DNA of 64,000 nucleotides. Origin: a virus. The notes under the pieces are model-generated. The model had not been told where the DNA came from. It made no database searches and worked only from the letters and a program-made list of their open reading frames with translations. Shown one piece after another: positions 1,451-60,358 of the stretch (position 1 is its first letter; each line of letters opens with the position of its first letter). Location of the stretch: positions 162,273 to 226,272 of the IMG/VR virus record IMGVR_UViG_3300045988_069849; one strand, 5' to 3'. The position numbers were made by a program, and so were the translations under genes.

Positions 1451-1556
1451 TAATAACTCGACATTGGAATTGGCATTGCTGACGTCATTGTTAGAATTGA
1501 AATAGCTGAGACCTGCATTGCTGCCATTATTCGCGTTGCTGCCTACTAGCAGTACT
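1451..1556 (-). repeat. DGR template repeat (TR), A-rich in sense orientation
   Basis: A ~105-nt segment between the RT and the target gene. It is homologous to 1656-1762 and to 29043-29140. All ~27-28 mismatches against each copy fall at adenines of this copy, read on the minus strand. Confidence 0.8.
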
Positions 1557-1630
1557 TTTTTGCCAATCAACGGTTTTTAGAAGTAATATCCTACGATTTA
1601 TCATCTAAATCGATTTTTATATTGTATATC

Positions 1631-3448: not shown

Positions 3449-3461
3449 ATCATTGTATTAT

Positions 3462-3662
3462 TAAAGTTTCATCAACTACATCGTGATCTATTCCCTCTAT
3501 GGAAGCAGTTAGGTCCTCAACAGCCTTCTACAATTCTGCTTTAGTAGCATAGTTCTTGAGAACTTCCTAGTCTACTCCAGAGCCTCCTCCTATACTTCCT
3601 CCAACAACTTTTACTGGTTTGGCAGAACTCTTAAACTGTCCTTCAATATAAATTGTTCCCAT
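3462..3662 (-). CDS. small late protein (~66 aa), two in-frame TAG
   Basis: Manual translation with TAG=Q gives MGTIYIEGQFKSSAKPVKVVGG... It lies directly upstream of the tail-fibre start. Confidence 0.35.
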
Positions 3663-3689
3663 ATTGTTTAAAATATTAATTGTTCATTT

Positions 3690-5506
3690 TCTCCATCTAC
3701 CTCTACACTAGAACCTGGCTATAAAGCGTCTATCTTTTTCTACAATTCGGCTACGGCCTAGCTAATTAGTTCTTCTACCTCAGCTTTGGTGTAGTATCTC
3801 TCTATAAGATATTCGCTCCTAACATATCCAGTATCTTGTAAATCTTTTTCTCCATAGGTGCAATAATAAGTATCTTCTTCAGTCTTACTATTCTCAACTA
3901 GGTCATCATAATCAGCTTGTGGTAAGCATACAAGTTTTGGTACTTCTTCAGTAATAGCAACTTGCTTGCCTCCAGCAAATAGCCTGTTATCTTCTGTGGT
4001 AAGTTTAACAGAACTCTCAATAACTTGCTCAGTTCCTGTTTCCTCAGAAGGTTCTCCAGTTGTTCCCTATTGTACTTCTTTTTCTCCAATTTTCTAAATA
4101 GTAATATCAGAAGTTTCTACTGATGTAGATTTCAAAAGCTCAGTGCTAAATTCTTTAGCAGCAGCAGCCTAATCATCCTGATATTTTTTCTAGGTAACAA
4201 ATATGAAATCATCATCTCCGGTTTCAGGAGAGTCTCCCCTTAAACTTTCTTTTGTTACGTAATCTTCGGCTATCTAATCTGATAAATCAGATAATGACTA
4301 TTGAGTAGCATAAGTAGACTGAGCATTTTCCTTAGTAAGAAATTTGTCATCAACCTGCTAAATAGTATAATAAGCCTTAATATCTTCTGTAGTAACGTAG
4401 TTTCCAAGTTTTTGCAAACCTTGAACTATTTCATCAATCTACTTCTTGGAGTAATAATTTGTAGCAACCCAGGACTGATATTGATTGGTAGTATGATAAT
4501 TCTAATCCAAATATTCCTTAGTAATATAAACCTTTGCATCATTTGTGACGTCATATACATAGTAATATGTATCAGGCTCTACCGTCCCTTCCTCTACTAA
4601 CTTTAGATACTCTTCTTCAGTTAATGTTACTAAGTTCGGAATATCCGATTCAGTAGCAATCTAATCTTCACCTATAAATAATCCTTCAGACCTAACGTCT
4701 ACTACTAGCTAGCTCTCTCCCTCTACTACAGGAGATTTTATCTATCCAACAGTGATGCTTTCTAAGGAACCATCTCCATCTACCTTAAGAGTTTTATCTA
4801 ACTCGTCTTGGATGGCCTACTAATCTTCCTCATATTCTTTCTTTGTAACGAAGACAAAATCATCTCCTTCCATTCCCTCTCCTCTAAGACTTTCTTTAGT
4901 AACGAAAATATTGTCTGTTTCTTCCTTAGTATAATACTTAGTCAGGGATAGAGCTAAAGAATCATTAGAGACATAATTAGTAGTTAATTCTTCCAGTGTA
5001 GCATAATCTGATAGGCTGGCAATAGTGTTATCTAAGTCTGTTCTAATCTATACTACAGTAGTATTAAGGGCCTTCTGTTTTAATTGCTCTTCTATCTTTT
5101 TTCCCCATTCCGCAGATAGGTAAAACTAGTCATCGTCTAAGCTATCCTCATATATATAATAATATGTCTCAGCATGAAGATACGTTTTACTTTCATCTAT
5201 GGGCCTAAAATCGTCTGTAGTATTCTCAGACCATTCTTTATATTCAGCCTCTGTACAGGTGATTATCTAGATAGATTCATAGGATGCTTTCCATCCTTCC
5301 TTGTATTTAATCTTAGACTTATCAATTAGCATATAAATATTTCCGTTATCTATGTTAGCAACGGTCATACCTTGATAAGCATACTTCTCTGGAATAGAAT
5401 AAAGTTCGTCTAAGTTATTAACGACTGTTCTATTATCGAGAGGCTTCGGAGTTTCTACGGTTAAAGCGACACCTAAGGTAGCATCACCTGTATATTTAAA
5501 TGCCAT
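3690..5506 (-). CDS. late structural gene(s) with internal tandem repeats (DDFVFVTKKEYEED / DDFIFVTQKKYQDD); TAG-interrupted; probably 1-2 genes, internal boundaries unresolved
   Basis: Start is MAFKYTGDATLGV (ORF-track 5267..5506). The track fragment 3898..4089 is in a different frame. Coding is continuous only if TAG is sense. A ~45-nt repeat unit occurs at ~4170 and ~4840. Confidence 0.3.
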
Positions 5507-5507
5507 T

Positions 5508-7080
5508 ATTGTGATAGAATAAAGTTAATTTGATGTGGCAATGCTGAGGAGTAAGTATCTTTCTTAGTCCATACCTTGTAAGTAAATCCATTTATCTACT
5601 CGGTAGACGTTTCCCAACCACTTAGGTCTACATTTAAATATCCAAGTCCCCCATCTACGGTAAATGAATTTAACTATGTGTTACTTCCTGGCAATTTTAT
5701 AATAGCCTTACCACTTAGTGAAAATGTGATAGTTCCAGACGATTGTCCAAAAGGAACTAGCGCCTATTTAATCACACTATCAGTATTACCAGAATACCAA
5801 GGATATGTGGCTACTACCTAAGCGGTAGCGGAAATAGAACCAGCTTCTACTCTCTTATCTGTAACTTCTCCTTTATTGTTTATCAAATATTCTCCAGCGG
5901 CATAACTCACTGTACCAGAGTGAGTATAAGTACCAATAGAATTATATGTATCAGACTCTACAGGAGAACTGTTATAAGTAATAGTTTCTTGTCTGTCAGT
6001 TTCTTCTCCAGCATCATTCTTTATAAATGTAAGTGTAGGAGTTAATAAAGCAGTTCCTACTTCTACTATTTGAGAAGTAAAACTATAATAAAGCTATGGG
6101 TATACTAAATCTCTAACTACTGTTGGAAATAGTAAAGTATCAATAATCTCATTAAAGGGCTTGCCCTTAAGTTTCTCTACTGTAGTCCCTTCAATTACTG
6201 TTGAAGTAGTATCATCTGGGAGTTCTGTCTAATAAGTAGCTATAGTTTCTAAGTTAGTTTGTATATTAGTAATACTTTCAGTATTAGCTTCTACTTTAGT
6301 ATTTGTCTCTTGTTGTGCTTCCTAAGTTTTCTATACTTCTTTCTTTGTTTCTTCTAGAGCAGGTTCAAGATTCTTAACATAGATACCTGGAAGGATAATA
6401 GAAGAGGTTTCCTCTCCAATCTCCTATTCTATTAAATGAATAGCATTATCTTCCTAAGTAGATAAAATCACCTCTAAAGAATTATCTTCCTTTAGTTCTA
6501 TAGTTTTGGAATTTTGGAGACTATTCTTAATCCAATTAAGAATGTTTTTATCAACATCTATATTCTCAATAGCATTATTCAACTCAACTATAGCTTCATT
6601 GATTTTTACTATTTCTTCAGATAGATTATTAATCCCTTTTCTATTAGTATCAATTTCTCGTTGTAAATCCTCCTTCAATACAGATATAGAAGTTCTAATA
6701 TTGCTTATATCGACTTTCAGTTCTTCTATTGCTTCTGTATTAGATTCATATTCACTAATAAAGTATAGGGCATAGTCTAGGGCATCCTTCACAGTATTAA
6801 TACCTTCTGCAACGTCACTAGTATAGGTCCATTTTTGTTCTATATACTATACTAGGTCTTTTTGCAGTTCTATGGTTCCACTAATGTTTCCCCACAATAG
6901 ACTCTACTCATCAGCAATACCTAAGTTCTTTCTTACTTTAGCTTTTTCTAGTTCTGTCCTATATTCTCCTAAATAGTTATTTCTTAAGAGGGGTATAGGC
7001 TCACATTTTATAGGCTTACCCTTTTTACCACAAGGCACTATATCTGCGTTACTTACCGAAGTGTAAATAGACTGTATCAT
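5508..7080 (-). CDS. late structural protein (~520 aa, coiled-coil region; fibre/baseplate-like), several in-frame TAG
   Basis: Start MIQSIYTSVSNADIVPCGKKGKP at 7078-7080. It contains ORF-track fragment 6454..6792 and continues through TAG codons to TAA near 5508. The exact frame was not verified along the full length. Confidence 0.4.
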
Positions 7081-7234
7081 TCTAGTTTAATAATTGCTAT
7101 TTAATAAATTCGTGATTATCTAGTCTTACAGGTAGGTTAATAAAACAAATTAGATTAAGAATATCTTGATAATCTGGTTTATATCCCTTTTTGAGTTTTC
7201 TTAGAAAATCCTCATACCTTTTAATAGCCTTTCT

Positions 7235-7379
7235 CTTAAGAGCATCCACAACCTATACGTTTATGTCCATGGTGGTGATTATCACAGAATCCTCCACAGG
7301 TACGGAACATCGCTAGTAATCTCTCAGCCTCCATGAATTGTTTAAAGCATATTAAATAATCTATAATGTTAAGAGTCAT
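7235..7379 (-). CDS. small Cys/His-rich protein (MTLNIIDYLICFKQFMEAERLLAMFRTCGGFCDNHHHGHKRIGCGCS)
   Basis: Manual translation of a short ORF. Too short for the ORF track. Confidence 0.3.
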
Positions 7380-7481
7380 CCATATGAAATCTCGAGCAAA
7401 TATATCTGCTTCCTAATCTCTAGTTAGACACTTATTTAGTAAAGCATCAAAGAGTTTCTTACAATAATTAATGTAACACTA

Positions 7482-7967
7482 CTACAAGTTTCCTGTAAAG
7501 AAAACATCTACCTTACATTTTTTTATAGTAGTTCCTTCTATGTTTCGTTCAAGAACTTCTTTAACTGTACACTCTTCTAGCTTACCTTCTACTTCTTTAT
7601 ATAATTTTTCTCCATCAGTAACATAGATAGTCTCATAGTATTCCTTGTATTCGTCCGATGAATTTTCATACCATTTCATATTAGGAATAATGATATGGTC
7701 TACTACGTAATAACCATCATCCTTGACCTTAAACATACACGAGTCTAAGTCTTCTGTATGGTCATTAAGTAGGACATCTATCAGAGTAGCATCACTTATA
7801 CTAACTTTGATGATAGTATTCAAGGTAGCACTCTCACTATACTTATAGGAGTCGTAAGAAGTTACTACCTCTACATCTTCATCAATATACTAGCCATATT
7901 CTTTTGAGAAATCTTCTATCAGTATTTCCCCATTAATTTGGGTATGTATATCAATACTAAATTCCAT
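7482..7967 (-). CDS. late protein (~161 aa), one in-frame TAG
   Basis: ORF-track fragment 7482..7823 extends upstream through a TAG to the start MEFSIDIHTQINGEIL. Confidence 0.45.
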
Positions 7968-7980
7968 ATTGTAATAATTA

Positions 7981-8709
7981 AGACTCAATAGGCCACTAGC
8001 CATATTGAGCAGGGGTAGAAAAAGGTTTCCATTTACCTGCTTGTCTTATTCGTCTAGACATGAAGACGGAAGTAAATGATAAACTAATATCTTGAGGATA
8101 ATCTGTCCAGATATAAGAATATCCATCTGGGGTCGGAGGTAGTTTATCTAGTCCAGAAGAAGGCTGACCATTCCAATAGTAGTTATAGTCATATGCCTTT
8201 AGAGAAGTAACTTCTGTAGTTTCTTTCCCTTCAGCATCTATATACAGCGGATTTCCGTCCTCATCTGTTTTCTATTTATATTCTATAACTGGTGTTATTC
8301 CCTCGGTTCTAGTATATATAGTCTATATAATAGTAGAGACATCACTCGCTACTATTTCATAGATAGTAGTTCCCTATGATTCATCAGCTCCCTAAAAAGT
8401 AAATTTAGTTCTTTTCCATATATACGGATTCTCTTCTGTTGGAAGCTCAAAAGTATCAGACCACTACTTACTTGATAATTTTATTTCAGATTCATCGGCA
8501 GTATTAGCAGGGAGATAATGTATTTTAATAATAATACTATTAACTGCTTCACTTGAACCGGATAAATCTGATACCTACTTAAATAATTTTTTTAGGTCGT
8601 CTTCTACATTTGATTTAGAACCGGAAGCATTACTTATAATTACTGTCCCATCAGAGATAGGATAAATCTACTGCTAATCTTTGTTGTATACAATTGTTCC
8701 AGTTGCCAT
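7981..8709 (-). CDS. late structural protein (~240 aa), multiple in-frame TAG
   Basis: Manual translation MATGTIVYNKD[Q]QIYPISDGT... It starts directly after the portal stop. Confidence 0.4.
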
Positions 8710-8710
8710 A

Positions 8711-10882
8711 TTAATGTATTTGTCTTATTTTGTCATTATATGGATTTCCATCATGAAGCTAAGCCAACTCTATTTCAGTTCTTTTTTCTTCAATATCCAT
8801 TTGTCTATCTTTATAAGTAGAATCAGACTGAGCTTTAAGCCAGTTAACTTTATATTCTAACTGCATCTTCTACTATTCTAATCCTAGTCTCTATTCATCT
8901 AAGCTTTCAATCTTTTGCTGAGCTTTCTATAATTCTTGCTATAACTACTGAGCCTATTGAGAAGTTTCTTCTAATTTTTCTTGTAGTTGCTGAAGCTGAT
9001 TATTTTCCTCTTTGCGAACTTGAACAGCTTTCTTAACCTTATATTTAAGGTCTGTCAGACTCTTAGATGTAAGAGCCTCAAAAATAATATCTGGGTCCAT
9101 CTGTTGACTTTTTACGAACTCTGGAATGATTGCTTTTATAGTCTATAGATCTTCCATCACTTCTGAACTAGCAGTAATATGAATATCGTAGTCAGTAACA
9201 GTAAAATACTCAGGAAGTGCGGTGAATATCTGTTGATATTTATCCCCAAGTATAATAGTTCCAGTTAATCCTTTCTTATAAGTAACTTTAGCCTAATTAA
9301 GACTATCTAGTAGTATCTCGCAGGTTATTAAATCCATCTGCTAAAAATAGTGCTTAGTTACTATATACGAGTTAGCTACTCCCTACTTAATATTAGTAAC
9401 TGCATCTCTAGTTTCTATACCGTTAAGTCGTTCCCTAAATACTCCAGTTATTGATGATGTAGTTTGTTCTACTGATTGAATAGCTAATTCAATAGCCTAT
9501 ACAGCCTATGCTTTTAAGGTATCATCAAATCCGTTATATATCTAGTTTGGAGCTTGCTGTCCATCATTCCTACCTTCTTGGCTTGAGTCTATCCACATGA
9601 TACCACCTTTTTTATAGGCTAACCATTTTTGTACTCGTTCTGGCCATTTAACTCCTAAGTTGGTAGGCAACAGAGACATATCCATAATAACTCCGGCAGT
9701 ACCACTATTAGCTATTAGATTATCTCTATAATAGTTTAATAAGTCGTATCTATCCTACAGATGTGCACATTTTAATATAAGAGAATAAGGCTACTAAGAG
9801 CGATTTAAGAAATATACTCCATTTACCGATAAAGAACAGAAGTTGGGATTATCTTTAGATCTCATAACAGTCTTGTCTAATCCTCTAAGAATATATATCT
9901 CTTCTCCTATTCTAATAGTATTGTATCTCTACATCACAAAATCATCATCTGTTTCAATCCATTCAACATCATAGACTGGGATTAACTAGAACCTATGAGC
10001 ACTATATTCATTGTCTGGATAGCCGGGAATGGTTTCATGATTCTAATCTTCATTTACTACTGTACAAGTATCTCCATATACTCTTCTATAAACAGCAGCT
10101 GAATCATCAGCTCGCCATTCATCTTTTAGTCTTCTTAAATCTTCTCTAGATATTTCTTTGCCATATTTAGCTAAAATCTAACTCTTACTCATCCACTTTC
10201 TTACTACAACTCTATATGAGTTCCTTACATATGGAGATTCTGGATTTCTATCAACAAATGTATTAAGTGGGTTTAATACCTCTATTTCAATATTAGTTCC
10301 AGAAGCCGATGATTTCACTCTAAAGAATGTATAACCAGTAATTAATAGGTCTGTTAGTAACTAACGTAACTTAGTAATTAAATCGGTTTCTCTGGATTGC
10401 ATAATATAATGTACTATATTCTAAGCTGCAATTTCATATTGAGAAATAAAGGATTGGTCAATATCCTATATAATTTTATCTAACTAAGTCTTTACAGCTT
10501 TATCAGTAATATCCTTGCCATCAATAAACTTAAGAATTGAATTACTTAAATGGTCTTTCAAAAACTTTACTATTCCCTTGGTTATTTCTAGCTATTTTTC
10601 TCTTGTTATATTACTGATAGTATCTGAATCTTTGCAAGAAATTTTCGGAAGTATAGGAGTTCCTAAATATTCTCCAACTAGAGCATCTACGTGTTTCTTT
10701 AATAAAGGCGTAAACTCTACCGAAGTGGGGCTACCTATTCCGAAGTTTTCTTCCAGATAACGGAACTATTCAGGATCTCTTTTACCATTATAATAATTAT
10801 AAGCTTTCTGTAACTCATACTTATCATATACAAGTTCCGCAATAGCCTCGTTTGTCTTGTCTATCAATTCCTTCTCTTTCAT
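8711..10882 (-). CDS. putative portal protein (~724 aa) with a Q-rich C-terminal coiled coil; about 25 in-frame TAG
   Basis: A single frame runs from ATG 10880-10882 (MKEKELIDRTNEAIAELVYDKYELQKAYNYYNGKRDPE...) to TAA 8711-8713 when TAG=Q. It sits immediately downstream of terL and its size is portal-like. No motif-level proof. Confidence 0.45.
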
Positions 10883-11102
10883 AACATAAATTATGTTGTT
10901 CTGGAGGAAGTTTAGTAGCGTTATAATACTTAACTCTTTGTAACTTCCTACTTCTTAATTCTTCCTTAATAAATGGCAGAAATTCTTCGTCTGGTAAATC
11001 TGCTATTATTACTAATGGCATTTCTGACCTATCAAAGTTAAAAGAGACTTTATACCCAACTGGGTCTAAACTCTCAATATCTAGTCCGCCTATATACTCC
11101 AT
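10824..11102 (-). CDS. possible small ORF in an alternative frame, spanning the terL/portal junction
   Basis: ORF-track 10824..11285 is an uninterrupted 153 codons. It overlaps the terL 3' end and the portal 5' end in a third frame. Only the part downstream of the terL stop could be an independent gene. Confidence 0.2.
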   Translation of the reverse strand: MEYIGGLDIESLDPVGYKVSFNFDRSEMPLVIIADLPDEEFLPFIKEELRSRKLQRVKYYNATKLPPEQHNLCYEREGIDRQDKRGYCGTCI

Positions 11103-13437
11103 TTTGTACAAGTCCCTCATATATTCTAGGATCACTTGTTTCAACTCTGTATGGGTCATCATATTCGTTTCTTTGCATATTAAGTTCAGGAGTTTTCTTA
11201 GTTGGAATAACTCCAAATCTTTTAATTCCTCTCTCGTCGTAATAGTAACCAAAATCTTGGAACTATTCAACTTCTTTCTCCACAAGTACGGGCTGTCTTC
11301 CTGATAGCTCTTGGTCTGCCAACTCAGTCATACCTACAGCGGCTACAATATCATACTTACCCTTATTTTCATCATTATATGCAGTAAACTATTCTAGCAT
11401 TTCTTCGAACCATATAGTATGGCAATAGTCTTCTATAAAGGCGGCTGTTAAATCAGTATGCTATTCAATTATAGTTTTTGTAGCAGGAGTTCCATACTAT
11501 TTAGTAGTTCCATTTCTGACATCAGTTAGAGTAGCTCTTGGGCGCTTCATAAAATAGTTAAGGCATCCTTTTTCTCTAGCCCAAGTAACCATACCCATAC
11601 GAGTAGCTTCTATATTTATTTTACAATTATAATAGCGAGCTAAACACATAGCTATTTTATAGGCTTCTCTGATGTCTCCAGGTCTATCCTTGTACATAGC
11701 AACATACTGAGGGTCATTCATACCAAACGCACGTTTCTTAATCGTTATGCAGAAATCAGACGGATCTCTGGTTTCCTTAGAAGTCTAATTCGCTCCAATA
11801 TCAATACCGTCTATACCTGCTACGTATAAGTCTCGCATCTCTTTATAAACTGGAACTTCAAAATCCTAGCCATTATTTTCTGCTTCCTATCTAAGCTTTT
11901 CCATTTGTTCTTTATATAAGTCAGACCATATTGGATGCTCTAGAATTTTTACTTTACCATTGCTATTAGGAATCCATTTAAAGCCATCAATGTTATCCTA
12001 AGTATGTTTATTATTTTTGTAAAAATAATCAATATAACCACATTCGGGTCTTGGACCAATTTGTTTAAGTCTTATATTAGCTATCTATTCGGCAACTAAA
12101 ATTTTATTAAATTTATTAACACCTTCTAGATTAAATGCTTCTTCTGCATTCCAACAACGTTCAGCACATTTCTTTAGGTAGTCTTCTGGTACAGCTAACA
12201 GATTATCTCGCTCCTCCTATAAGAATTTCTTATATTCTACAGTATTACACACTCCTCTGTGGTCCATAAATTCTGGATTCAAAGATTGTATAAAGTATGG
12301 AATAAAGAATCCACTCTCTATAGTAGTCCCATCCTAAGTCCAATTATGTCTAAATGGAAGAATCTTATATGCTCTTGGATTATAGTAAATCTTTTTTAAG
12401 CCCTCTAGAGGAGCACCCATATCACCGCCAGTACCTCCAAACAACATTGTTCCACGAGGCATACCTTGAACTTCACAAAGTTCTTGACCTTGTACCACAG
12501 CGGTATCAAGTCCAGGCCAGGAACCAGCTTCATCATATATTAATAAATCTACACGGTCTCCACGAATGTTAGATGGTTTAGCTCCGTTAATTGCTACAAC
12601 CTCAGATTTAAATCCTACGTCTTCAAACTAACCATTTATTTTGATTTGTTTACCTGATTTCTTTCTCAAATCCTGGTCAATAAGTCGCAATTTAAAAAAT
12701 CCTCCTCCAGTACAGGTATTTAAGAATGTAAGAGCATTGTCAAACTTACTAAAGGTACCCTTAAGGAAGGTATCATTAAAGCAAGTAATCATAACCCTAC
12801 TTCTTCTAATAACAGAGTACATACGAGCAGAAAGAGAGGCGTTTATTTCAGAGAATCCAATAGAACGAGCTTTCATTAAAGCTGCGTGCTTGTGTAGCAC
12901 TCTAGCCATCTATAGATAATGAAAGAACATATAATGTGATGCAAAGAATATTGGGAAGTCATTATCAGTACCCTCACCAGAGGCTTTCTACTAGTCAATA
13001 GTAGGTAACTAATAGAAATTTAAGAAGAAGTAATTATCTCCAGTAATGGTGTATCCATTAACTGTCATTCCATACTTACATCTTCTATATTGCTCTTTCC
13101 AAAATTCGTTGTACCGCTTACTATCTCTAAGGTAGGGACAGTATTGACCAGTTCGTTTATATACTTCCCTAGTCTCGGTAAACCAATCTGGATTAAAGTC
13201 CAATCCATGAGTTTCGTCAATAGGTCTGTATCCAGTTATTTCATAAGATAAGGTAGGGTCAAATACTTCTATTTTATCTCCTATTTTAACATCCCAATAG
13301 TCAGAATTTCTGACCCTTTCCTCTCTTATTTTCTATACTAATTCTCTAGCTTCTTTAGCATCCTCTTTCTATTCTTTTTCTCTTACCTAATCTACAATAT
13401 TCTATATTTCTTCAGGTAATATCTTTTTTCTTGGCAT
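11074..13437 (-). CDS. terL: terminase large subunit (788 codons incl. stop), ~10 in-frame TAG
   Basis: One frame (lower coordinate = 1 mod 3) runs from ATG 13435-13437 to TGA 11074-11076, joining ORF-track fragments 13009..13203, 12628..12909 and 11497..11721. It contains the Walker B-like LLIYDEAG and an FGGTGGDMG motif. TAG codons sit in sensible positions, e.g. EEI[Q]NIVD[Q]VREKE[Q]KEDAKEARELV[Q]KIREE. Confidence 0.8.
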
Positions 13438-13439
13438 AA

Positions 13440-14006
13440 TTAAAAGTCTCCTGGGTCAAAACCATCCACAGCTCCAGCTCTAACAGTAGATTGTTCAGTA
13501 AGTTCTTTCTTAACCTAGTCTTCTAGTGTTATGAGTTCTTCATGAACTTTGTGAAGGGTAGCCATTTCCTTCATTACTTTTTCAGCCTGGAATACTGGTT
13601 TGCCGTTATTATCACGCTCATTTAAATCTACAATAGTTTCGAAATAATCAATAAACTAGTCTGCAGCTCTTTTAGCTGCTTCTAGTAATTTTATTGACTT
13701 GTTTGAATCTTGTAACGCTCTGTATTTCCTACAAGCTTCTCTAAATATAGGGTCATTAAATTCTGACTCTGTCAATCCAGAATCACTAATAGCTTCGTCA
13801 TGTCGTTCATGTTCCGAATACTAACTGTACGGACTTTTCCAGTCTATAGCTAAATAAATGTAAGATAGTTCTCTAGTAGCTCTATCCTTTTCTGCAGATT
13901 TATCCCTCTAGATTAAAGCCTTAAATTCCTTAACTAGCAATATCTCTGGTTCATTTATTTCTAGCTATTTAGTTAAAGTGTTATAGTTAAATACATTCAT
14001 AATCAT
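13440..14006 (-). CDS. putative terminase small subunit (~188 aa), 5 in-frame TAG
   Basis: Lies immediately upstream of terL. Manual translation MIMNVFNYNTLTK[Q]LEINEPEILLVKEFKALI[Q]RDKSAEKD... The assignment is positional only. Confidence 0.4.
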
Positions 14007-14037
14007 TAATCATTATCATACACATTAGATAATCTTA

Positions 14038-14616
14038 TTATTTCTTTTTCATTTTGGAACCGCACTTATTGACTTTCATTTTGGAACCACAAGCGTCTTT
14101 CTTAGCATATTGTTTTCTGTCAGGAACCCATTTTCCTCCCTGGAAATTACCCTTATGTCCCTTATTGGCCATAGTTTCCTAATCATTGTATTTATTGATT
14201 GATATAGAATCTCTTGAGGCTTCGTCTCTAGCAGATTTCATATCTTTCTTATACTAAGCTCTTCCAGCCTTAAATTTATCAACTTCATTAGCTTTCTTAG
14301 TAACTTTAGTTCCTTTTTGTGCTTTCTGGCAAGCTTTACAGATTCTACCGCCTTGCTTAAAATATACAAGCTCTTCTCCTTCTGGACATACTCCTTTTAG
14401 CTTCTTATAATACTCAAGCTTAGCTCCAAGCCTAGCCATTACTCCTCCTTGCATTTTCTGCATAAATTCCTGATACTTAGCTTTAATGCCGTCTTCTCCT
14501 AATTGTTCAGCATAAGCTTGTAAATCCTATTCAGATTGTACTTGTATTCCCTACGCAGCGGCATCTTGTATTAGATATGCCATAAATGCTTTTTGTAATT
14601 CTTCCTAGTTAGCCAT
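14038..14616 (-). CDS. basic Cys-rich protein (~192 aa), 3 in-frame TAG
   Basis: ORF-track 14254..14463 ends on TAG and continues. Start MANWEELQKAF at ~14616. The C-terminus ...CGSKMKKK ends at TAA 14038-14040. Confidence 0.4.
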
Positions 14617-14826
14617 TACTCTTCTACTTTAATTAAATCCTTAGTATTAAACACTGCTTCCTACATAAGTCCGGAATCAGTAAACCATCTACATCTTAAT
14701 CCTCGTAATCCTTGGTTATCTTTAAATAAAGCTGCTTCTCTTCTTAGAACAAGCATAACTGGAGAATGCATTACTTTACACTACCGTAAAGTAACACAAT
14801 CCCCAGGCTTAAAATAAACTTTTTCA

Positions 14827-19292: not shown

Positions 19293-19306
19293 TATTAATT
19301 TTGGCG

Positions 19307-19378
19307 TTGCCCTACTAGGATTCGAACCCAGACTAAATGATTTAGAGTCATCTGTGCTGACCATTACACCATAGGGCA
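19307..19378 (-). tRNA. amber suppressor tRNA, anticodon CUA (reads UAG), tRNA-Gln-derived
   Basis: Cloverleaf: acceptor tgcccta/tagggca, D-arm gtgt-aatggtca-gcac, anticodon stem gatga/tcatt with loop CUCUAAA (positions 34-36 = CUA), variable tagt, T-arm ctggg-ttcgaat-cctag, discriminator A. D-arm and T-arm are nearly identical to tRNA-Gln(UUG) at 34205-34276. Confidence 0.8.
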
Positions 19379-21666: not shown

Positions 21667-21737
21667 TCCCCATTAGTATAATGCTATTGCGCCTTCCTCT
21701 AAAGAAGGAGATTCTGGTTCGAGTCCAGAATGGGGAA
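21667..21737 (+). tRNA. tRNA-like with anticodon CUA (second candidate amber suppressor), non-canonical D-arm
   Basis: Acceptor tccccat/atgggga (U1-A72), anticodon stem ccttc/gaagg with loop CUCUAAA, variable agat, T-arm tctgg-ttcgagt-ccaga, discriminator A. The D-arm lacks G18G19 and pairs weakly. Confidence 0.4.
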
Positions 21738-22097
21738 CTTGGTATTTGAGGACTACAACTACTTGTAGACTCTGTTGCAGTTAAAGATTATAATGGGTAC
21801 GCCCTGAGACTAATGCAGAGCATCTCTTATGAATAGAGGTGTCTTATCGTGAGATAAGGCAAAGTATTGTGAGATTGAGAGAATTACTAGCTAAAATGTT
21901 AGAAGAAGACCCAGATTCAAGTAGCAATATCTACAAAGAAATATGGGGAGCTTATACTGCTGGGATGAACTCCTTGCTCGAGTAGCAACAATTCCAAGCT
22001 TGGTGAATTAAAACTAGCTAACCTAATTACTCTTTATAAGGTTGAGAATGTAAAAAGAGAATTGGAATGGTAAGCCCATCTCCCTTCGTCCTTTGCT

Positions 22098-53474: not shown

Positions 53475-53880
53475 ATTTAATCAGATTTTTTGTGAGGATT
53501 TGAAAGATGATTTCGAGGAAGCTGGTAGGCATGAGAGAAATTTCGAGTTAGACGAGTTTATTCAGAAGGATTTAAGTAGAGCATTTGCGTTTGGTTATTG
53601 TCATTTAGACTGGATAAAGGAGAAAATGTGGTTTCCTGTTCCTATTAGGAAGGCTTTACGGCATTTAGGGGACGACCTAGAAGATTTTGCTCCTCAGCTT
53701 AAATGGCTTAACGAAAAATATGGTGCTATAGGAAAGAGAGTTAGAATTGTTGATTATGCAAACTATATTTTAGATAATATATTTTGTGACAATCAAGACG
53801 ATTTGCTAAAGATAGCAATATTACTCGGAACTAACATGAGAGTAAATACTGCTGATGAGCAGGCTAGAAGTGTTCACTGA
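53467..53880 (+). CDS. hypothetical protein (137 aa)
   Basis: ORF track. Confidence 0.5.
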   Translation: MIEFNQIFCEDLKDDFEEAGRHERNFELDEFIQKDLSRAFAFGYCHLDWIKEKMWFPVPIRKALRHLGDDLEDFAPQLKWLNEKYGAIGKRVRIVDYANYILDNIFCDNQDDLLKIAILLGTNMRVNTADEQARSVH

Positions 53881-54298
53881 TGGAGCTTTTAGCTCGTCTA
53901 GAGACACAGGAGGAGTAGGAGTTGTATTCGTAATTGATGGGGAAAAAGCCTATGAATTTAGTAAGATGATTCCTAATACTACTAATAATAAATGTGAGTT
54001 GTTAGCAGTAATTTATGCTCTAAATGCAGTAAGTCGTAAAATCGAATCTCTGACTATTTACTCAGATTCTCAGTACGTCATAGGATGTGCTACTAAAGGA
54101 TGGAAAAGAAAGAAGAACGTAGAGTTATGGAATTTATACGACAAGGTCTTAAATAAGGCAAAGCAATTTTGTCCTAATATAGATTTTTGTTGGGTGAAAG
54201 GACATACTTCAAGTTCAGACTTCTTTTCTCAGATGAATAATCTCGCAGATAAATTAGCAGTTGAAGCAAGTCAGGAATATGAAACTAAGAAAGAATAA
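53855..54298 (+). CDS. rnhA: ribonuclease HI
   Basis: EVFTDGAFSS...NNKCELLAVIYAL...IYSDSQYVIG...WVKGHTS...NNLADKLA matches the RNase H fold signature. Confidence 0.7.
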   Translation: MSRLEVFTDGAFSSSRDTGGVGVVFVIDGEKAYEFSKMIPNTTNNKCELLAVIYALNAVSRKIESLTIYSDSQYVIGCATKGWKRKKNVELWNLYDKVLNKAKQFCPNIDFCWVKGHTSSSDFFSQMNNLADKLAVEASQEYETKKE

Positions 54299-54695
54299 GA
54301 ATAAGAAACTTATCAAAGAAGCTATGAAGTTTTATCCATTCGATTATGGATTTGTTCTCTCTTTAGAGAAACAAGCCCTAATTAGAATGTATGAATACTT
54401 TAAGGTATCTAGAATTGCGGAAGGCAATGAACGTGTCGAAAAAGAGCTAAATCTAGCACTAAAGCTATTAGATATTGTGCTAGAAATAGATTCTGCGTAT
54501 CACCATGACTTTAGACCTGGGTCAAAGGGATTTGTAGATAGACACATAAATACTAAAAATTGGAATCGATTCCACCCTAAGGCTGCTGATCTCGATTGGA
54601 ATACTCCAATCCTTAAAGATTATCTGAGAAGAGAAAAAGCCTGGTACTTATACAACAAACTAAAGTTTGAACGTATGAGGTCTTGGTGGGATTAA
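54261..54695 (+). CDS. hypothetical protein (144 aa)
   Basis: ORF track. Confidence 0.5.
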   Translation: MKQVRNMKLRKNKNKKLIKEAMKFYPFDYGFVLSLEKQALIRMYEYFKVSRIAEGNERVEKELNLALKLLDIVLEIDSAYHHDFRPGSKGFVDRHINTKNWNRFHPKAADLDWNTPILKDYLRREKAWYLYNKLKFERMRSWWD

Positions 54696-54711
54696 TTTAA
54701 TTAATAGAATT

Positions 54712-55728
54712 ATGAAGAAAATTTTTAGTATTATTTGTTTGTGTTTAATGTGCGTGTTTGCTAGCGCACAAGTTGTTGAAACTGGAAGTTTGAAAGATAA
54801 CTGGTATGTTTCTGGTAATGTAGGTACCACAATTTGGGACAACTCAAGAAGTTGGGCTGAACCTCATGATGTATTAGTAAATATTGCGGTGGGTAAAGAA
54901 ATTACTCCTATCTTCGGACTAGAGTTAGATATGATGGCAGGTATGAATCAAGGCAGTAAAACGTTCTTCGATTCCCATAACCTTACAGCTAATGTAACTA
55001 CTAATCTAACTAATCTTATTTGTGGATACGAAGGCTCTAGACGTTTATTTGAGCCTGTATTACTGATAGGTGCTGGTTGGTATCATACTTATGGTGATGT
55101 TTATAATAATGTATCTGCAAGAGGTGCAATTAGATGCAACTTTAATATTACTGATAGTTGGGCACTAAATGTTACTCCAGAGTATATGCTACTTCCAAAG
55201 ACTACTCCTCTAAATCATGAAGTAAATGTTTATATAGGAGCCACTTACCGGTTTAAGTCTAATAAAGGAAACTTTCCTATGATGAAACTATATAGTGACG
55301 CTGAAGTAGAAAGTCTTAATGCTGCTATTAACGAGTTGAGGGTTAAGAATAGCGAATTGGAATCTCGTAAACCAGTAGAAATAATTAAGACTGATACTAT
55401 AGTAGTTACTAAGGTAGAACTTCTTACACCTAAAATTCAGTTTTTACAGAACTCTTCTGAAATCTCTACAACTTCTAATGTTGCAGTATCGGAGTTAGCA
55501 GCTTATATTTCAAATAGTGGTAAGTCATATATGATTGAAGGATATGCTTCTGAAGAAGGTCCAGTAGATTTTAATGACAACTTAGCTGTAGCTAGAGCAG
55601 AATCTATGAAGAAGGCCCTTATCAGTTATGGCGCTCCAGAGGATAAGCTTATAGTTAAAGGCTGCGGAAGCACTACTGAGTTTGGAGATAGAGAATTTAA
55701 CAGAATCGTAATCGTAACAGAACAATGA
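54712..55728 (+). CDS. OmpA-family outer-membrane protein (signal peptide, beta-barrel-like N-domain, C-terminal OmpA domain)
   Basis: MKKIFSIICLCLMCVFASAQ is a signal peptide. The C-terminal YMIEGYASEEGPVDFNDNLAVARAESMKKALISYG...NRIVIV is an OmpA-like peptidoglycan-binding motif. Confidence 0.7.
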   Translation: MKKIFSIICLCLMCVFASAQVVETGSLKDNWYVSGNVGTTIWDNSRSWAEPHDVLVNIAVGKEITPIFGLELDMMAGMNQGSKTFFDSHNLTANVTTNLTNLICGYEGSRRLFEPVLLIGAGWYHTYGDVYNNVSARGAIRCNFNITDSWALNVTPEYMLLPKTTPLNHEVNVYIGATYRFKSNKGNFPMMKLYSDAEVESLNAAINELRVKNSELESRKPVEIIKTDTIVVTKVELLTPKIQFLQNSSEISTTSNVAVSELAAYISNSGKSYMIEGYASEEGPVDFNDNLAVARAESMKKALISYGAPEDKLIVKGCGSTTEFGDREFNRIVIVTEQ

Positions 55729-56291
55729 AATACAAGAAAAAAGTAAAATGGTTAAAGGATAAACAGGCATGGTGGGATAAGCAGGGAAAAGATTTCCAAG
55801 CTGCAACCACTAGACCTGGTTCCGTTAAAACTCGATAATCTATGTTAGCTATTATACTAGCAATAGTCTTGATAATCGCCTTTATTTATTACGACCCATA
55901 TGTAGATATTACAGAGGATAATGTCTTATTATGGTATAATGGTAAGGGATATAGGGAATACATTATTCTGTGGTCCAGAAATACTAATTAAGTATGGACG
56001 TAAAGATTATGTTGATAAGTGATTGTATAGGAGTTGTGCTCTATGCGCTCCTATACTATACACTTTATCATACCTATGAACTAGATTATTTAGGTTCTGG
56101 AAGGTGGAGAAGGTGGAGAAGAATATCTGTGCCTGGTTGGGCTGTAGTTATAGCCCTAGTGAGCCTATGTCTTCCTCCTGTAGCTGTCTCGCTTTCTATA
56201 GTAAGCTGGATTATATATATGCTTAAGTTTCTCGGCGATAAATATTACGAGGTAGACGTTTCTTTTATTAAGTTTTTATCAAACTCAATAC

Positions 56292-56804
56292 ATGACACGA
56301 ATATTTAAACATCTAATTAGGATTATTAAGCATAAATACTGGGTAGCACGCTATTGTTTCCAGTTAGGTCTTTATTGGCAGGGAATAGTACATGACTGGT
56401 CTAAGTTTAGCTATACTGAATTTAGTAGGTCAATAAAGTATTGGGACGATACTATTAGTCCTCTAGCTAATGAGAAAAACATACACGGATATTCTGAAAC
56501 CTTCCTACATCATCGAGGAAGAAATCCACATCACTATGAATATTGGGTTCATAGTTTAGATGAAGGAGGAGTTCCAGCGAAAATGCCAAGAAAATATGCT
56601 TTGGAATTAGTCTGTGATTATCTGGCTGCTGGGAGAACCTATAATAAAGATTTTACCTATGGGAGTGAGTACAACTGGTGGATTAAATTTCTAAGTTCAC
56701 CTAGAGCTATACATCCCGAAACCAAGGACTTCGTAACTAAATGCTTTAGGCATTTGAGTGCCGGAGGTAATATTAAATATTTATTGAAAATTGACTATGA
56801 GTAA
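56292..56804 (+). CDS. hypothetical protein (170 aa), His-rich motif HHRGRNPHHYEYW
   Basis: ORF track. Confidence 0.5.
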   Translation: MTRIFKHLIRIIKHKYWVARYCFQLGLYWQGIVHDWSKFSYTEFSRSIKYWDDTISPLANEKNIHGYSETFLHHRGRNPHHYEYWVHSLDEGGVPAKMPRKYALELVCDYLAAGRTYNKDFTYGSEYNWWIKFLSSPRAIHPETKDFVTKCFRHLSAGGNIKYLLKIDYE

Positions 56805-57615
56805 GATAATAGGGCAAGACAAGTTAATTAAGGAAGTTAATAGAATATTTCAGGTATTTATAAATAGTAATTGCAAGATAAGACCGCACTTTATTCTTAC
56901 AGGTGAGAGCGGGTCTGGTAAGAGCTTTACTATTAAACAGTTATGTGATATGAATGAACTTAGCTTTCTAGAAGTTAATGCAGCTCAAATAACTAAAGAG
57001 GGTATTTCTGGAAATAGTTTAAGCAAAATTCTATCTCCACTTGTTAACTATAGTCACACACCTATTGTAGTCTTCGTAGACGAGTTTGATAAACTTTTCA
57101 TCAACGGAAACACTAATAGCCAACTGGCTAATGAATCTACTGCCAGTGTACAGAACGAGTTTCTCAAACTTTTAGAGTCTGATACTACTAGTGTTTTTGG
57201 CGATTATGGGAAGTACATATCAGTCCCTATTGATAATGTACTATTTGTGTTTGCTGGAGCATTCAATAATGAGCCTCACATTACATTAGATAGACTAAGA
57301 GACTTTGGAGTTAAAACAGAGTTTCTTGGAAGAGTAGGATTAATCTACAATACTAAACCTCTCACTCTAGAGGATTTGTATTCTATCTTGGAGTGTTCAG
57401 ACTTGTTGCAGAATTATCTTGACTTATTCTTTAATGTAAATAGAGAACAAGTCATTAGTGATTTGAAAGGGTATCTCGAAAGTTCTTTTCGCAATAATAC
57501 TCTTGGAGCAAGAACAATTAATACTCTTATTCACCAATACTTTATCAAAGGTGGAAAACTCGAAACTGAAGAAGTAAAAGAAATAACTTTTAACAAAAAA
57601 TTAGAATGGAAATAA
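56791..57615 (+). CDS. AAA+ ATPase (274 aa)
   Basis: Walker A GESGSGKS; Walker B VVFVDEFDK. Confidence 0.65.
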   Translation: MTMSKIIGQDKLIKEVNRIFQVFINSNCKIRPHFILTGESGSGKSFTIKQLCDMNELSFLEVNAAQITKEGISGNSLSKILSPLVNYSHTPIVVFVDEFDKLFINGNTNSQLANESTASVQNEFLKLLESDTTSVFGDYGKYISVPIDNVLFVFAGAFNNEPHITLDRLRDFGVKTEFLGRVGLIYNTKPLTLEDLYSILECSDLLQNYLDLFFNVNREQVISDLKGYLESSFRNNTLGARTINTLIHQYFIKGGKLETEEVKEITFNKKLEWK

Positions 57616-59156
57616 TTAATGCTACAGATGGTTACAAGTTGGGCCATCACAGAATGTACCCCGAAGGTACTGAACAAGTTTATAGTAACTGGACTCCTAG
57701 AAGTAATAAATACTTCCCAGAAGCAACCGAAGGTTCAGTAGTATTTGGTATTCAATACCTAATCAAAGAATATCTCATTAAACAGTTTGAGAAAAACTTC
57801 TTTAATCTACCAAAGAAGGAAGCTGTGGAGATGTTCTATCGTAGAGTAAACAACTTTGTTGGTATTGAATCCGTTGGGTACAGACATATTGAAGCTTTAT
57901 ATGACCTTGGGTATCTACCAATTCGCATAAAGGCTCTTCCTGAAGGTTCTGTGTGCCCTATTCGGGTTCCCATGATGACCATTACAAATACTCTACCCGA
58001 GTTCTTTTGGTTAACTAACTACTTAGAGACTATTATCAGCTGTACCTTGTGGATGCCATGCACATCTGCTACTAGAGCTAGGCTTTATAAGAAAGAGCTA
58101 CATCGTCATGCTTGCAAGACTGGTTTTCCAACAGATGTAAATCTTGGTTTTTGTTGTCATGATTTCTCAATGCGAGGTATGGCGGGAATGGAAGCCGCAA
58201 TTATATCTGGTATGGCGCATATGACTTCTTTTGTGGGAAGTGAAACTATTCCAGCTATTGCTGCTTTGGAAGAATATTATGGAGCTAATTCAGACGAGGA
58301 ATTGATTGCTGCTACAGTTCCAGCAACAGAACACTCTGTAATGTGTGCTGGAGGGGAGGAAGATGAGCTGGGCACTTTCAAACGTCTAATTAATGATTTG
58401 TATCCTTCTGGGTTTGTTTCTATTGTATCTGATACTTGGGATTTCTGGAATGTAATTGAAAATTTCTTGCCCAAGCTGAAGAAAGACATTATGGCTCGTG
58501 ATGGTAGAGTAGTAATCCGTCCTGATAGTGGAGACCCAGTAGATATAATCTGCGGGTTGAGAACTAATCCTCACTTCAATACCAGAATGAAAGAAGGTAA
58601 GTATTATTGCTGCTATGCTCCGTTTAACGACGATGCAGAGTATGTTGAAGTGTCCGAAGGTCAATATTATGGGGCATATTATATGCTTGGTAAAATCTTC
58701 GGATGGAATACTACTTCAAAGGATTACCGTTATCCTAGCACTAAGGTTGGTCTGCTTTATGGAGATTCTATTACTCTGGAACGTCAAAAGCAAATCTACT
58801 TGAGATTAGAAAACGCTCATATGGCGGCTTGTAATCTCGTTCTGGGAGTAGGTTCATATTCCTATCAGTATGCAAGTAGAGATAGTCTTGGGTTTGCTAT
58901 TAAGGCTACTGCTTGCGTAGTAAATGGCGAATTGAAAGAAATCTTCAAACATCCTAAAACTGATGATGGTACTAAGAACTCTTTGAAAGGTTTGATTGCT
59001 GTCTATAAATGTCTGGATGGGAAGTATACTGCTACCGACCAGGTCTCAATCGAGGAGGAAAAAGAGGGATGCTTAGAGACTGTCTTTGAAGATGGTATCT
59101 TGAAGAAAGAATATTCTCTTGAAGAAATCAGACAAAGAATTGACCATGGACTTTAA
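57606..59156 (+). CDS. nadV: nicotinamide phosphoribosyltransferase (NAMPT/NadV)
   Basis: N-terminal DGYKLGHHRMYPEGTEQVYSNWTPR matches the NAMPT signature. Length 516 aa. Confidence 0.7.
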   Translation: MEIINATDGYKLGHHRMYPEGTEQVYSNWTPRSNKYFPEATEGSVVFGIQYLIKEYLIKQFEKNFFNLPKKEAVEMFYRRVNNFVGIESVGYRHIEALYDLGYLPIRIKALPEGSVCPIRVPMMTITNTLPEFFWLTNYLETIISCTLWMPCTSATRARLYKKELHRHACKTGFPTDVNLGFCCHDFSMRGMAGMEAAIISGMAHMTSFVGSETIPAIAALEEYYGANSDEELIAATVPATEHSVMCAGGEEDELGTFKRLINDLYPSGFVSIVSDTWDFWNVIENFLPKLKKDIMARDGRVVIRPDSGDPVDIICGLRTNPHFNTRMKEGKYYCCYAPFNDDAEYVEVSEGQYYGAYYMLGKIFGWNTTSKDYRYPSTKVGLLYGDSITLERQKQIYLRLENAHMAACNLVLGVGSYSYQYASRDSLGFAIKATACVVNGELKEIFKHPKTDDGTKNSLKGLIAVYKCLDGKYTATDQVSIEEEKEGCLETVFEDGILKKEYSLEEIRQRIDHGL

Positions 59157-59583
59157 TCATCCTTTTGGGAAAGAAGCTTGCAAGAAACGACTATTAGAAG
59201 AGTATCATAAATACGGAAAGCTAATAGTCGCTTTCGATTTTGATAATACTATTTTCGATTACCATAATACTGGCGGAGATTATAGTTGCGTTATAGAACT
59301 ACTTAAAGAATGCTCACTTCTAGGTTTTGAAATGATTTTATTCACCACTGATGAAGATGATTATAAAATTATGGCAAAGCAGACAATTTGTATGCGATTA
59401 GGAATAGCAAATATTACTTCTAATACTTTATCTGCTCCAAACATTAGTAGTTCTATATTCTCTAAATCTAAGAAACCTTATTACAATATCCTCCTAGATG
59501 ATAGGGCAGGTCTGGAAGAAAGTTATGAAATCTTAAAATATGTAGTAGATGAAATTAAACTTAATCAACAAGGAAATCAGTGA
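59119..59583 (+). CDS. HAD-superfamily hydrolase (DxDxT motif)
   Basis: IVAFDFDNTIFDY. Confidence 0.5.
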   Translation: MKKSDKELTMDFNHPFGKEACKKRLLEEYHKYGKLIVAFDFDNTIFDYHNTGGDYSCVIELLKECSLLGFEMILFTTDEDDYKIMAKQTICMRLGIANITSNTLSAPNISSSIFSKSKKPYYNILLDDRAGLEESYEILKYVVDEIKLNQQGNQ

Positions 59584-60358
59584 AATTAAGTACGATGTTA
59601 CTAGATTTCCTGATGGAGAGCCTCAGTTTTTCCTTACTGAGGAATTAAACAGAAAGGAATCTATTGATGTCATTTGTAGAATATCTAATACTGAGGATTT
59701 ATTCCTCTTAGTGCAAGTAGGAGATATTTTAGATAGACAAGAAGTAGAATGGGATTTACACATTACTTATTTAATGTCTATGCGTATGGATAGAGTAATG
59801 AGTTTTAATCGTCCATTCTCCTTGAAAGTAGTATGTAATATGTTAAATAGCTTAGGCTATAGAAACATATATGTTCTTGAGGCACATTCTAGTAGAACTT
59901 TTCATCTTCTTGGTGACAGATGTTTACCTTGGGAATTTGGACACCACTCTTGGATTCCAGCCCAAAGTAATATCGTGTTCCCAGACCATGGGGCGAAGGA
60001 CAGATATGGAAGTAACTATTCTCACTATGGTTATTTAGTCTTCAAAAAGGAAAGAAATCTAGAGACTGGAAGAATTGAGTCCTTTGAAATAGAGGAGTCT
60101 AAGAATTGCTACTATTCTACATTTGTGTTCATTGATGACTTGTGTGATGCCGGAGGAACTTTCCTAGGAGAGCTTAAGGTTCTCAAAGAGAGATATCCAA
60201 ATAGCAAGTTTATCATAATCGTATGTCACGCAGTTAATGATAAAGGTCTGATTAATATGTGTAATAATTTTGACCAGGTTATTGTATCTAATTCTCATAG
60301 GGATATTAATTATCGTCCCAGCAACGAGAACTTAACTGTAATAGACGTTTGTAAATAA
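59549..60358 (+). CDS. type I phosphoribosyltransferase-fold protein (Prs/PRPP-synthase-like)
   Basis: FVFIDDLCDAGGTF matches the PRPP-binding PRTase motif. Confidence 0.5.
   Translation: MKLNLINKEISEIKYDVTRFPDGEPQFFLTEELNRKESIDVICRISNTEDLFLLVQVGDILDRQEVEWDLHITYLMSMRMDRVMSFNRPFSLKVVCNMLNSLGYRNIYVLEAHSSRTFHLLGDRCLPWEFGHHSWIPAQSNIVFPDHGAKDRYGSNYSHYGYLVFKKERNLETGRIESFEIEESKNCYYSTFVFIDDLCDAGGTFLGELKVLKERYPNSKFIIIVCHAVNDKGLINMCNNFDQVIVSNSHRDINYRPSNENLTVIDVCK

Follow-up and report, generated by a model that had tools for sequence, protein, structure and literature searches.

The stretch of DNA analysed here (the window) spans 64,000 nt, positions 162,273 to 226,272 of the IMG/VR virus record IMGVR_UViG_3300045988_069849, and comes from an apparently TAG-recoding crAss-like phage, Steigviridae/Asinivirinae-like. 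Close to its 3′ end, three overlapping open reading frames (ORFs) on the plus strand form a module that we read as NARP1, a phage pathway for NAD+ reconstitution, with an added phosphatase gene. The first ORF (57606–59156, 516 aa), which holds TDGYKLGHHRMYPEGT...VYSNWTPR, has the NAMPT fold and is the putative nicotinamide ADP-ribose transferase, Namat. The last (59549–60358, 269 aa), which holds FIDDLCDAGGTF, is PRPS-like and is the candidate ADP-ribose pyrophosphate synthetase, Adps. The 392-nt gap between them is bridged by a single gene on the same strand, encoding a predicted capless HAD-superfamily phosphatase (59146–59583, 145 aa from the ATG at 59146), the module accessory, which overlaps Namat by 11 nt and Adps by 35 nt. 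Its ORF is open from a first possible TTG at 59119 (59119–59583, 154 aa) and contains FDFDNT; the ATG at 59146 is the start used in most of the called homologues. Immediately upstream, the stop of an AAA ATPase gene (56791–57615, phrog_5534) overlaps the Namat start by 10 nt. We confirmed all three ORFs, including the motifs quoted for them, at the coordinates given beforehand by an interpretation of the letters alone (the sequence-only reading), whose fold assignments were also right: NAMPT type for the first protein (Pfam NAPRTase and NAMPT_N), HAD for the second (four motifs and the fold) and PRTase/Prs-like for the third (phrog_619). An arrangement of three ORFs with these motifs and families lies far beyond chance.

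The 516-aa protein matched NAPRTase (3.4e-32) and NAMPT_N (9.7e-10) in Pfam, as well as phrog_448 (1e-182, labelled NAMPT) in PHROG. When its sequence was searched against the PDB, the best matches were 9w5x/9w5w with 488 bits, followed at a distance by human/rodent NAMPT (~227) and Xanthomonas Nampt (~198); the sequence and numbering of 9w5x/9w5w agree with those of the SpbetaL1 Namat described in PMC12774641. The Namat selectivity-clamp helix motif (SCH) lies at 58851–58883 on the plus strand (GSYSYQYASRD, aa 416–426) and has Tyr at positions 3, 5 and 7, in line with the clamp motif of NARP1 enzymes, with Thr replaced by Ser at position 9. The same site reads GSFTYQYNTRD in SpbetaL1 and GGALLQKVDRD in Xcc Nampt, and the motif is common to the Namat homologues of DAC15, cr126_1, ICP1 and BCP18 and to most of the IMG/VR loci examined. 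The selectivity-clamp loop (SCL), at 57702–57713 on the plus strand, is S33-N34-K35-Y36. This loop supplies a stacking residue, its third position being Arg, Lys or Tyr and its fourth residue stacking when the third is Lys or Tyr (PMC12774641). With Lys third and an aromatic residue fourth, the loop in the window appears to follow the Bas63-type arrangement of the same study. Conservation relative to SpbetaL1 Namat further extends to the catalytic residues D8, Y10, F187, S188, R190, H243, R305, D307, G386 and D387 (window numbering). Of the core that Namat has in common with NAMPT (SpbetaL1 D13, Y15, F189, R192, D215, the catalytic His, R306 and D308), every residue but D215 is retained. Between two conserved blocks, the crAss clade carries ~27 residues more than SpbetaL1 Namat (aa 318–355, nt ~58557–58670).

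The 269-aa protein matched phrog_619 at 2.3e-51 (labelled Prs), and its Pfam matches to Pribosyltran and PRTase-CE were weak and below gathering. All curated PRPS models failed, with TIGR01251 scoring 58.3 bits vs a cut-off of 113 and the PRK equivalogs at most 48 bits vs cut-offs of at least 296. In alignment, the protein stops ~40 residues short of E. coli Prs and lacks the PRPS C-terminal α11–α12 module. The loss of these helices is also a feature of the ICP1 Adps structure (PMC13586617), in which the catalytic Lys185 sits on a β-hairpin, the pyrophosphate (PP) loop spans C215–S220, and F18, R87, F92, H121, D161, D212 and D213 are the acceptor residues. By alignment, F20, R79, H113, D146, K167 and R169 of the window protein correspond to ICP1 F18, R87, H121, D161, K185 and R187, and D196, D197, C199, D200, T204 and F205 to ICP1 D212, D213, C215, D216, S220 and F221. 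The PP loop (DDLCDAGGTF, aa 196–205, 60134–60163 on the plus strand) aligns with ICP1 D212–F221 (DDICDGAASF), which in ICP1 is the ATP-pyrophosphate donor site, and the catalytic Lys167 is encoded at nt 60047–60049. The catalytic Lys, PP loop and residues for ADP-ribose (ADPR) expected of a NARP1 Adps thus seem to be in place. A hidden Markov model (HMM) of eight Namat-linked Adps proteins from outside the crAss group scored the window protein at 141 bits and E. coli Prs at 113. In pairwise comparison, the window protein reached 44–68 bits with these Adps proteins and 28 bits with E. coli Prs. Furthermore, the homologue in DAC15 (42% identical) is listed in Supplementary Table 1 of Osterman et al. 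among the 'Adps homologs', with 'Namat within 10 genes = Yes', which supports placing the window protein in the Adps clade. Searching the PDB with its sequence returned distant PRPS matches only and no Adps structure.

Osterman et al. (bioRxiv 10.1101/2024.02.11.579819) reported that a phage operon annotated as Prs plus Nampt makes no nicotinamide mononucleotide (NMN). Instead, Adps pyrophosphorylates ADPR to ADPR pyrophosphate (ADPR-PP), and Namat couples ADPR-PP with nicotinamide to give NAD+. Their working definition of NARP1 is an Adps-type PRPS-like gene near a Namat-type NAMPT-like gene, as the 516-aa and 269-aa genes lie here, and their survey found that 97% of Adps-clade genes adjoin a Namat homologue, which bacterial prs genes rarely do. 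Because the pairing of a NAMPT fold with a PRPS fold is the defining signature of NARP1, we read the core pair as NARP1, and on its motifs this is very probably what it encodes. In the mechanism that we propose, a host NADase (Thoeris, SIR2-HerA, DSR, SEFIR and similar) would cleave NAD+ into ADPR and nicotinamide. Adps (59549–60358) would then pyrophosphorylate ADPR at its distal ribose with the β,γ-pyrophosphate of ATP, yielding ADPR-PP, and Namat (57606–59156) would couple ADPR-PP with nicotinamide to give NAD+ and pyrophosphate, without an NMN intermediate. We infer the Adps and Namat steps from sequence signatures shared with homologues that have been characterised by experiment.

The sequence-only reading had taken the 516-aa protein for an NMN-making NadV/NAMPT; its Namat clamp motifs and its PRPS-like neighbour point to NARP1 instead. 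The same reading had seen in the missing NMNAT or Nudix partner a possible sign of a variant pathway. NARP1 yields NAD+ straight from ADPR, ATP and nicotinamide, so such a partner is unnecessary. Indeed, we found no NMNAT (CTP_transf_like), Nudix or Macro domain in the flanking genes or in 39 other plus-strand ORFs of at least 100 aa, a scan that lay outside the TAG-recoded minus-strand block. Of the family searches that had been suggested, those for NAPRTase and, weakly, for Pribosyltran thus gave matches, but CTP_transf_like was absent from the scanned ORFs and the HAD ORF had no Pfam match. The proviso that the idea should fall if no enzymatic partner existed genome-wide does not apply, the partner being the adjacent Prs-like gene. 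What was upheld is the broader view of a NARP-type NAD+ reconstitution module that plausibly counters NAD+-depleting immunity, as NARP1 counters Thoeris, DSR1, DSR2, SIR2-HerA and SEFIR (bioRxiv 10.1101/2024.02.11.579819). The NARP1 core is already known and the crAss lineage already appears in the supplementary table of the original survey, so that this part of our analysis is a re-annotation; current records label the genes of the module as NAMPT, 'phosphoheptose isomerase' and Prs.

The intervening HAD protein drew no Pfam match as the 154-aa ORF and matched phrog_1238 at 4.6e-15. The four motifs of the superfamily, which shares a Rossmann-like core, are invariant across its homologues: DFDNT (motif I), Thr (II), K119 (III) and DDRAG (IV). 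An AlphaFold2 model built from 42 sequences had a mean predicted local distance difference test score (pLDDT) of 93.5. The structure nearest to this model was BT_0820 (PDB 2obb), followed by the 3′-phosphatase of T4 Pnkp and by Pnkp1. The protein nevertheless falls outside the BT_0820 family of minimal HAD phosphatases (NCBIfam NF046079), scoring 20.4 bits vs a cut-off of 165 at 22% identity. On the basis of model and motifs, we are confident in predicting a minimal capless HAD phosphatase. Given this fold and these motifs, we discarded its PHROG name, 'phosphoheptose isomerase', as an annotation artefact.

Homologues of this HAD protein are rare, occurring in only 82 records of the phage collection (Bacillus Bastille-like phages, Prevotella Lak megaphages, crAss-like phages, Phass-1 and a few others), and in every case inspected there they adjoin NARP1 genes. 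We extended the comparison to the 78 best IMG/VR loci with a HAD homologue, which form 19 clusters at 60% identity. Namat and Adps were both adjacent to the HAD gene and on the same strand in 15 of the 19; among the others, one Lak-like cluster had Adps adjacent and Namat elsewhere, two had neither, and one could not be judged owing to contig ends or other limits. The order Namat-HAD-Adps seen in the window recurs in DAC15 and cr126_1. In the IMG/VR loci, at least four orders were present, namely Namat-HAD-Adps, Adps-HAD-Namat, Adps-Namat-HAD and HAD-(PncA/nicotinamidase)-Adps-Namat. The NARP1 genes are split apart in Prevotella Lak megaphage genomes: in Lak-C1 (L006, 4001–5245) and Lak-B2 (L008, 4001–5295) the HAD gene lies immediately 5′ of Adps, and Namat is distant, by >80 kb in Lak-C1 (168280–169749) and by >200 kb in Lak-B2 (195703–197172). 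The HAD gene is absent from two close crAss relatives, cr85_1 (L088, 2995–5320) and Kolpuevirus 'frurule' (L089, 2995–5541), in which Namat is followed directly by Adps. Kept beside Adps in Lak and missing from these two relatives, the HAD gene behaves as an optional NARP1 accessory tied more closely to Adps than to Namat. We consider it probable that it is a functional part of the module; the sequence-only reading had listed the gene in its three-gene cluster but had missed this role as a conserved accessory.

Two further modules bear on which side of the pathway the HAD protein would serve. In Phass-1 (OQ749652.1; L007, 1881–6319) and in the IMG/VR locus L073 (5962–9963), the module additionally contains a nicotinamidase of the Isochorismatase family and the NAD synthase NadE, and Ala occupies the Asp215 position (SpbetaL1 numbering) of the NAMPT-like enzyme, which reads GDFS in place of HDFS. 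These sequence features suggest a nicotinate-based NARP1 that may run through a deamidated route, from nicotinamide via nicotinate and deamido-NAD to NAD+. Since the HAD gene is retained in modules with nicotinamidase and NadE, its product may act on the ADP-ribose/phosphate side and not on the pyridine side; its place beside Adps in Lak phages, with Namat far off, likewise points to the ADPR side.

Several loci are rearranged around these genes. In near-identical genomes, the N-terminus of the AAA ATPase is fused in-frame to the motif-I region of the HAD protein (L087, 4001–4672, on a Logan ERR13992162 contig of 185,893 bp, proteins P0005–P0007, equivalent to window 56791–59583). At least two such junctions exist (...FDKLFING|KLIVAFDFDNT and ...VVFVD|DFDNT), with the whole of Namat lost and Adps kept. 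These fusions look like natural NARP1 loss variants, and an assembly artefact is possible. The fecal contig MT836666.1 (9280–11659, compared with window 57606–60358) is 100% identical in Adps, is 100% identical in Namat only through aa 433, and matches the HAD protein in two pieces at 93.7%; near-identical genomes therefore differ locally around the Namat C-terminus and the HAD N-terminus. The cr85_1 Namat is annotated as two coding sequences (51 aa and 448 aa), which may reflect a frameshift or an early stop.

Precedents for NARP1 accessories come from two enzymes that supply ADPR. The Macro-domain protein Adpp turns ADPR-1″-phosphate, the product of the aRES NADase, into ADPR; in 15% of the phages with NARP1 its gene separates Adps from Namat, an arrangement termed NARP1-AP (bioRxiv 10.64898/2026.01.28.702374). 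The glycosidase RyDEP opens cyclic ADPR (cADPR) signals to give ADPR, thereby feeding NARP1. By analogy, the HAD protein could strip the phosphate from forms of phosphorylated ADPR that are no substrate for Adps, releasing ADPR; candidate substrates would be ADPR-1″-phosphate from RES-type NADases and 2′-phospho-ADPR from NADP+ cleavage. It would thereby widen the range of NAD(P)+ breakdown products that can be recycled. Our proposal that it is an independently recruited, non-homologous counterpart of the Macro Adpp, converting phosphorylated ADPR to ADPR, is tentative, being a guess constrained by fold, linkage and the precedents of Adpp and RyDEP.

The HAD protein could also have nothing to do with NAD+ and be a chance neighbour, for example a nucleic-acid end-healing 3′-phosphatase or a general nucleotidase. 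After BT_0820, its nearest structures are indeed the T4 Pnkp 3′-phosphatase and Pnkp1, and RNA-repair-like genes occur close by in two loci: in the IMG/VR locus L047 (4970–6001), a 343-aa PNK-like protein that combines a P-loop kinase (AAA_33) with an NT5C-type HAD nucleotidase is encoded between Namat and the small HAD gene, and in L078 a gene of the RNA-repair family RlaP lies two ORFs upstream of Adps. Two homologue clusters, moreover, have no NARP1 gene within 6 kb. However, 16 of the 19 clusters adjoin Adps and/or Namat across crAss-like, Bacillus, Lak, Phass-1 and other lineages with the gene order shuffled, and the module genes are probably co-expressed, to judge from the overlap of their reading frames in the window; both points make a chance neighbour unlikely. 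Scanning for sigma-70 promoters and terminators was uninformative here: promoters were as numerous as expected from shuffled sequence, and those of Bacteroides fall outside the scan's models.

A role in pulling or tidying the pathway, through hydrolysis of the pyrophosphate from Namat, removal of the AMP from Adps or dephosphorylation of ADPR-PP breakdown products, would fit the tight linkage to Adps, as in Lak phages. HAD-type pyrophosphatases occur in Bacteroides, and labile ADPR-PP decays to the cyclic phosphate ADPR-cP. AMP inhibition was also assayed by the authors of the Adps study (PMC13586617). On the other hand, the host's pyrophosphatase is already abundant, a cyclic phosphate would have to be opened by a phosphodiesterase before a HAD phosphomonoesterase could act on it, and nothing specific speaks for such a role, so that we regard it as quite unlikely. 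A possible source of the phosphodiesterase step was considered and set aside: a 2H phosphoesterase gene at ~35.2 kb of the window could open the ADPR cyclic phosphate ahead of the HAD protein, but it is 22 kb away and we found no link. This small ORF (35173–35631, plus strand) contains HCTL and HITI (two H-x-T/S motifs), matches Pfam tRNA_lig_CPD with an E-value of 2.6e-7 and has no PHROG match; its likely start is Met17 (nt 35221), since a tRNA-Met at 35127–35200 overlaps the ORF. From these motifs it could be an RNA-repair enzyme or an Acb1-like enzyme that degrades cyclic nucleotides.

We put the probability of a NARP1 core together with a pathway-linked accessory phosphatase, taken jointly, at about three in four. 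Several observations weigh against this interpretation. In Namat, the nicotinamide-contacting Asp215 of SpbetaL1, an Asp in characterised Namat and NAMPT enzymes alike, is replaced by Glu213 (nt 58242–58244) throughout the crAss clade, and the D215A change in the SpbetaL1 enzyme reduced activity ~8-fold. Namat enzymes also keep some NMN synthesis that depends on phosphoribosyl pyrophosphate (PRPP), so some NMN output is possible. The window Adps belongs to a divergent Bacteroidota-phage branch with 26–29% identity to validated or Namat-linked Adps proteins, has Met84 in place of the adenine-contacting F92 of ICP1, and leads E. coli Prs by just 28 bits with the Adps HMM. PHROG membership was dropped as a discriminator between Adps and Prs, because E. 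coli Prs also matches phrog_619. The HAD fold, finally, is uninformative about the substrate: no function is known for BT_0820, and polynucleotide 3′-phosphatases come next in structural similarity.

Some of these points would also suit a classical salvage route, similar to NARP2 without an NMNAT of its own, in which the Prs-like protein makes PRPP, NadV makes NMN and the NMN adenylyltransferase of the host completes NAD+. The names given by Pfam, PHROG and NCBIfam (NAMPT/NAPRTase and ribose-phosphate pyrophosphokinase) favour it, as do the divergence of the window Adps and the fact that Namat enzymes, when assayed in vitro, retain roughly half the PRPP-dependent activity of NAMPT. Such annotations misled, however, in the case of Bas63, whose rescue needed neither host pncC nor nadR. 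The adenine-clamp motifs present here are absent from Xcc Nampt, the PRPS-like protein falls below all curated PRPS cut-offs and has no PRPS C-terminus, no NMNAT turned up in the part of the window that we scanned, and adjacency to Namat, the rule for Adps-clade genes in the Osterman et al. survey, is rare for bacterial prs. Classical salvage is therefore improbable. Also improbable is that the module consists of auxiliary metabolic genes raising NAD+ for phage replication: phage NadV genes have long been interpreted in this way and natural Namat-deleted variants indicate that the pathway is dispensable in some hosts, but NARP1 uses ADPR, which builds up only after NAD+ cleavage, NARP1 of other phages experimentally counters SIR2-HerA, Thoeris, DSR1/2 and SEFIR, and anti-defence genes are typically dispensable and patchily distributed.

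Compared with NARP1 of Bas63, SpbetaL1, Fado and ICP1, the window module shares the pair of PRPS-like and NAMPT-like genes, the SCH/SCL clamp, the Adps Lys, the PP loop and most of the ADPR contacts. It differs in having Namat first, Adps last and the HAD gene inserted, in the low identity of its Adps (26–29%), and in the Glu for Asp215 and the ~27 extra residues of its Namat. With NARP1-AP (Adps, Macro Adpp and Namat, as in Vibrio phage Gary) it has in common a three-gene operon, a phosphatase between the core genes and an accessory confined to a subset of loci. The Adpp of NARP1-AP, however, has a Macro fold and was shown to act on ADPR-1″-phosphate and to overcome aRES, whereas the phosphatase in the window has a HAD fold and is not homologous. 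No Macro domain was found within two genes of the window NARP1 (a DUF5662 protein, the AAA ATPase, the HAD protein and two ORFs without a Pfam match), so it is not NARP1-AP in the strict sense. NARP2 (NadV/NAMPT plus NMNAT, as in vibriophage KVP40) shares the goal of restoring NAD+ and a NAMPT-fold enzyme, but in the window this enzyme has the ADPR-PP clamp and a PRPS-like partner, and an NMNAT of the NMNAT, NadR or NatV type was absent from the scanned ORFs. NARP3 (NadR plus PnuC), which again has the goal of restoring NAD+, was rejected because neither gene type was present among the same ORFs. In the RyDEP-extended NARP1 of mycobacteriophage DyoEdafos, an extra enzyme is likewise inserted in the NARP1 locus and makes ADPR for the pathway; the substrates of the glycosidase RyDEP are cADPR immune signals, whereas the accessory in the window has a phosphatase fold.

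The assignment of the source genome rests on tblastn, which placed the window in the Crassvirales, with Bacteroides phages DAC15 and DAC17 and the uncultured cr126_1, cr111_1 and cr85_1 (Steigviridae, Asinivirinae) as the nearest annotated relatives; the 516-aa protein is ~65% identical to its counterparts in these. The standard code leaves the plus-strand block from ~20 to 64 kb intact, the NARP1 block included. The block on the minus strand (~39 to 14,628) is fragmented under table 11 and has ORFs of up to 794 aa when TAG is read as sense. Furthermore, two of the 29 tRNA genes in the window have the anticodon CTA (19306–19378, minus strand, and 21667–21738, plus strand), so that the phage seems to read TAG as sense in what are presumably its late genes. 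On the 5′ side of the module, the plus strand (53855–57615) encodes an RNase H, an OmpA-like β-barrel with a signal-peptide-like N-terminus (54712–55728), the DUF5662 protein and the AAA ATPase.

As far as we have checked, the three-gene NARP1 with a HAD phosphatase thus appears, on its sequence, to be an undescribed variant with good comparative support. Full-text literature searches, of incomplete coverage, returned no paper that ties NARP1 to a HAD enzyme, nothing on BT0820 and nothing useful on crAss plus NAMPT. After the Macro Adpp and RyDEP, the HAD protein would be the third kind of NARP1 add-on, for which we found no description in the searchable literature. crAss-like phages are among the most abundant human gut viruses, and a crAss-like NARP1 means that NAD+-depletion immunity and its evasion are probably at work in Bacteroides-phage dynamics. 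The identity of the HAD substrate would reveal which NAD+-derived molecule accumulates during host defence and could indicate an unrecognised mode of NAD(P)+ depletion. If the HAD protein is indeed a counterpart of Adpp in crAss-like, Lak, Bacillus Bastille-like and code-15 gut phages, the Bacteroidota and the Bacillus cereus group would use non-canonical NAD(P)+-cleaving defences beyond those that plain NARP1 can counter.

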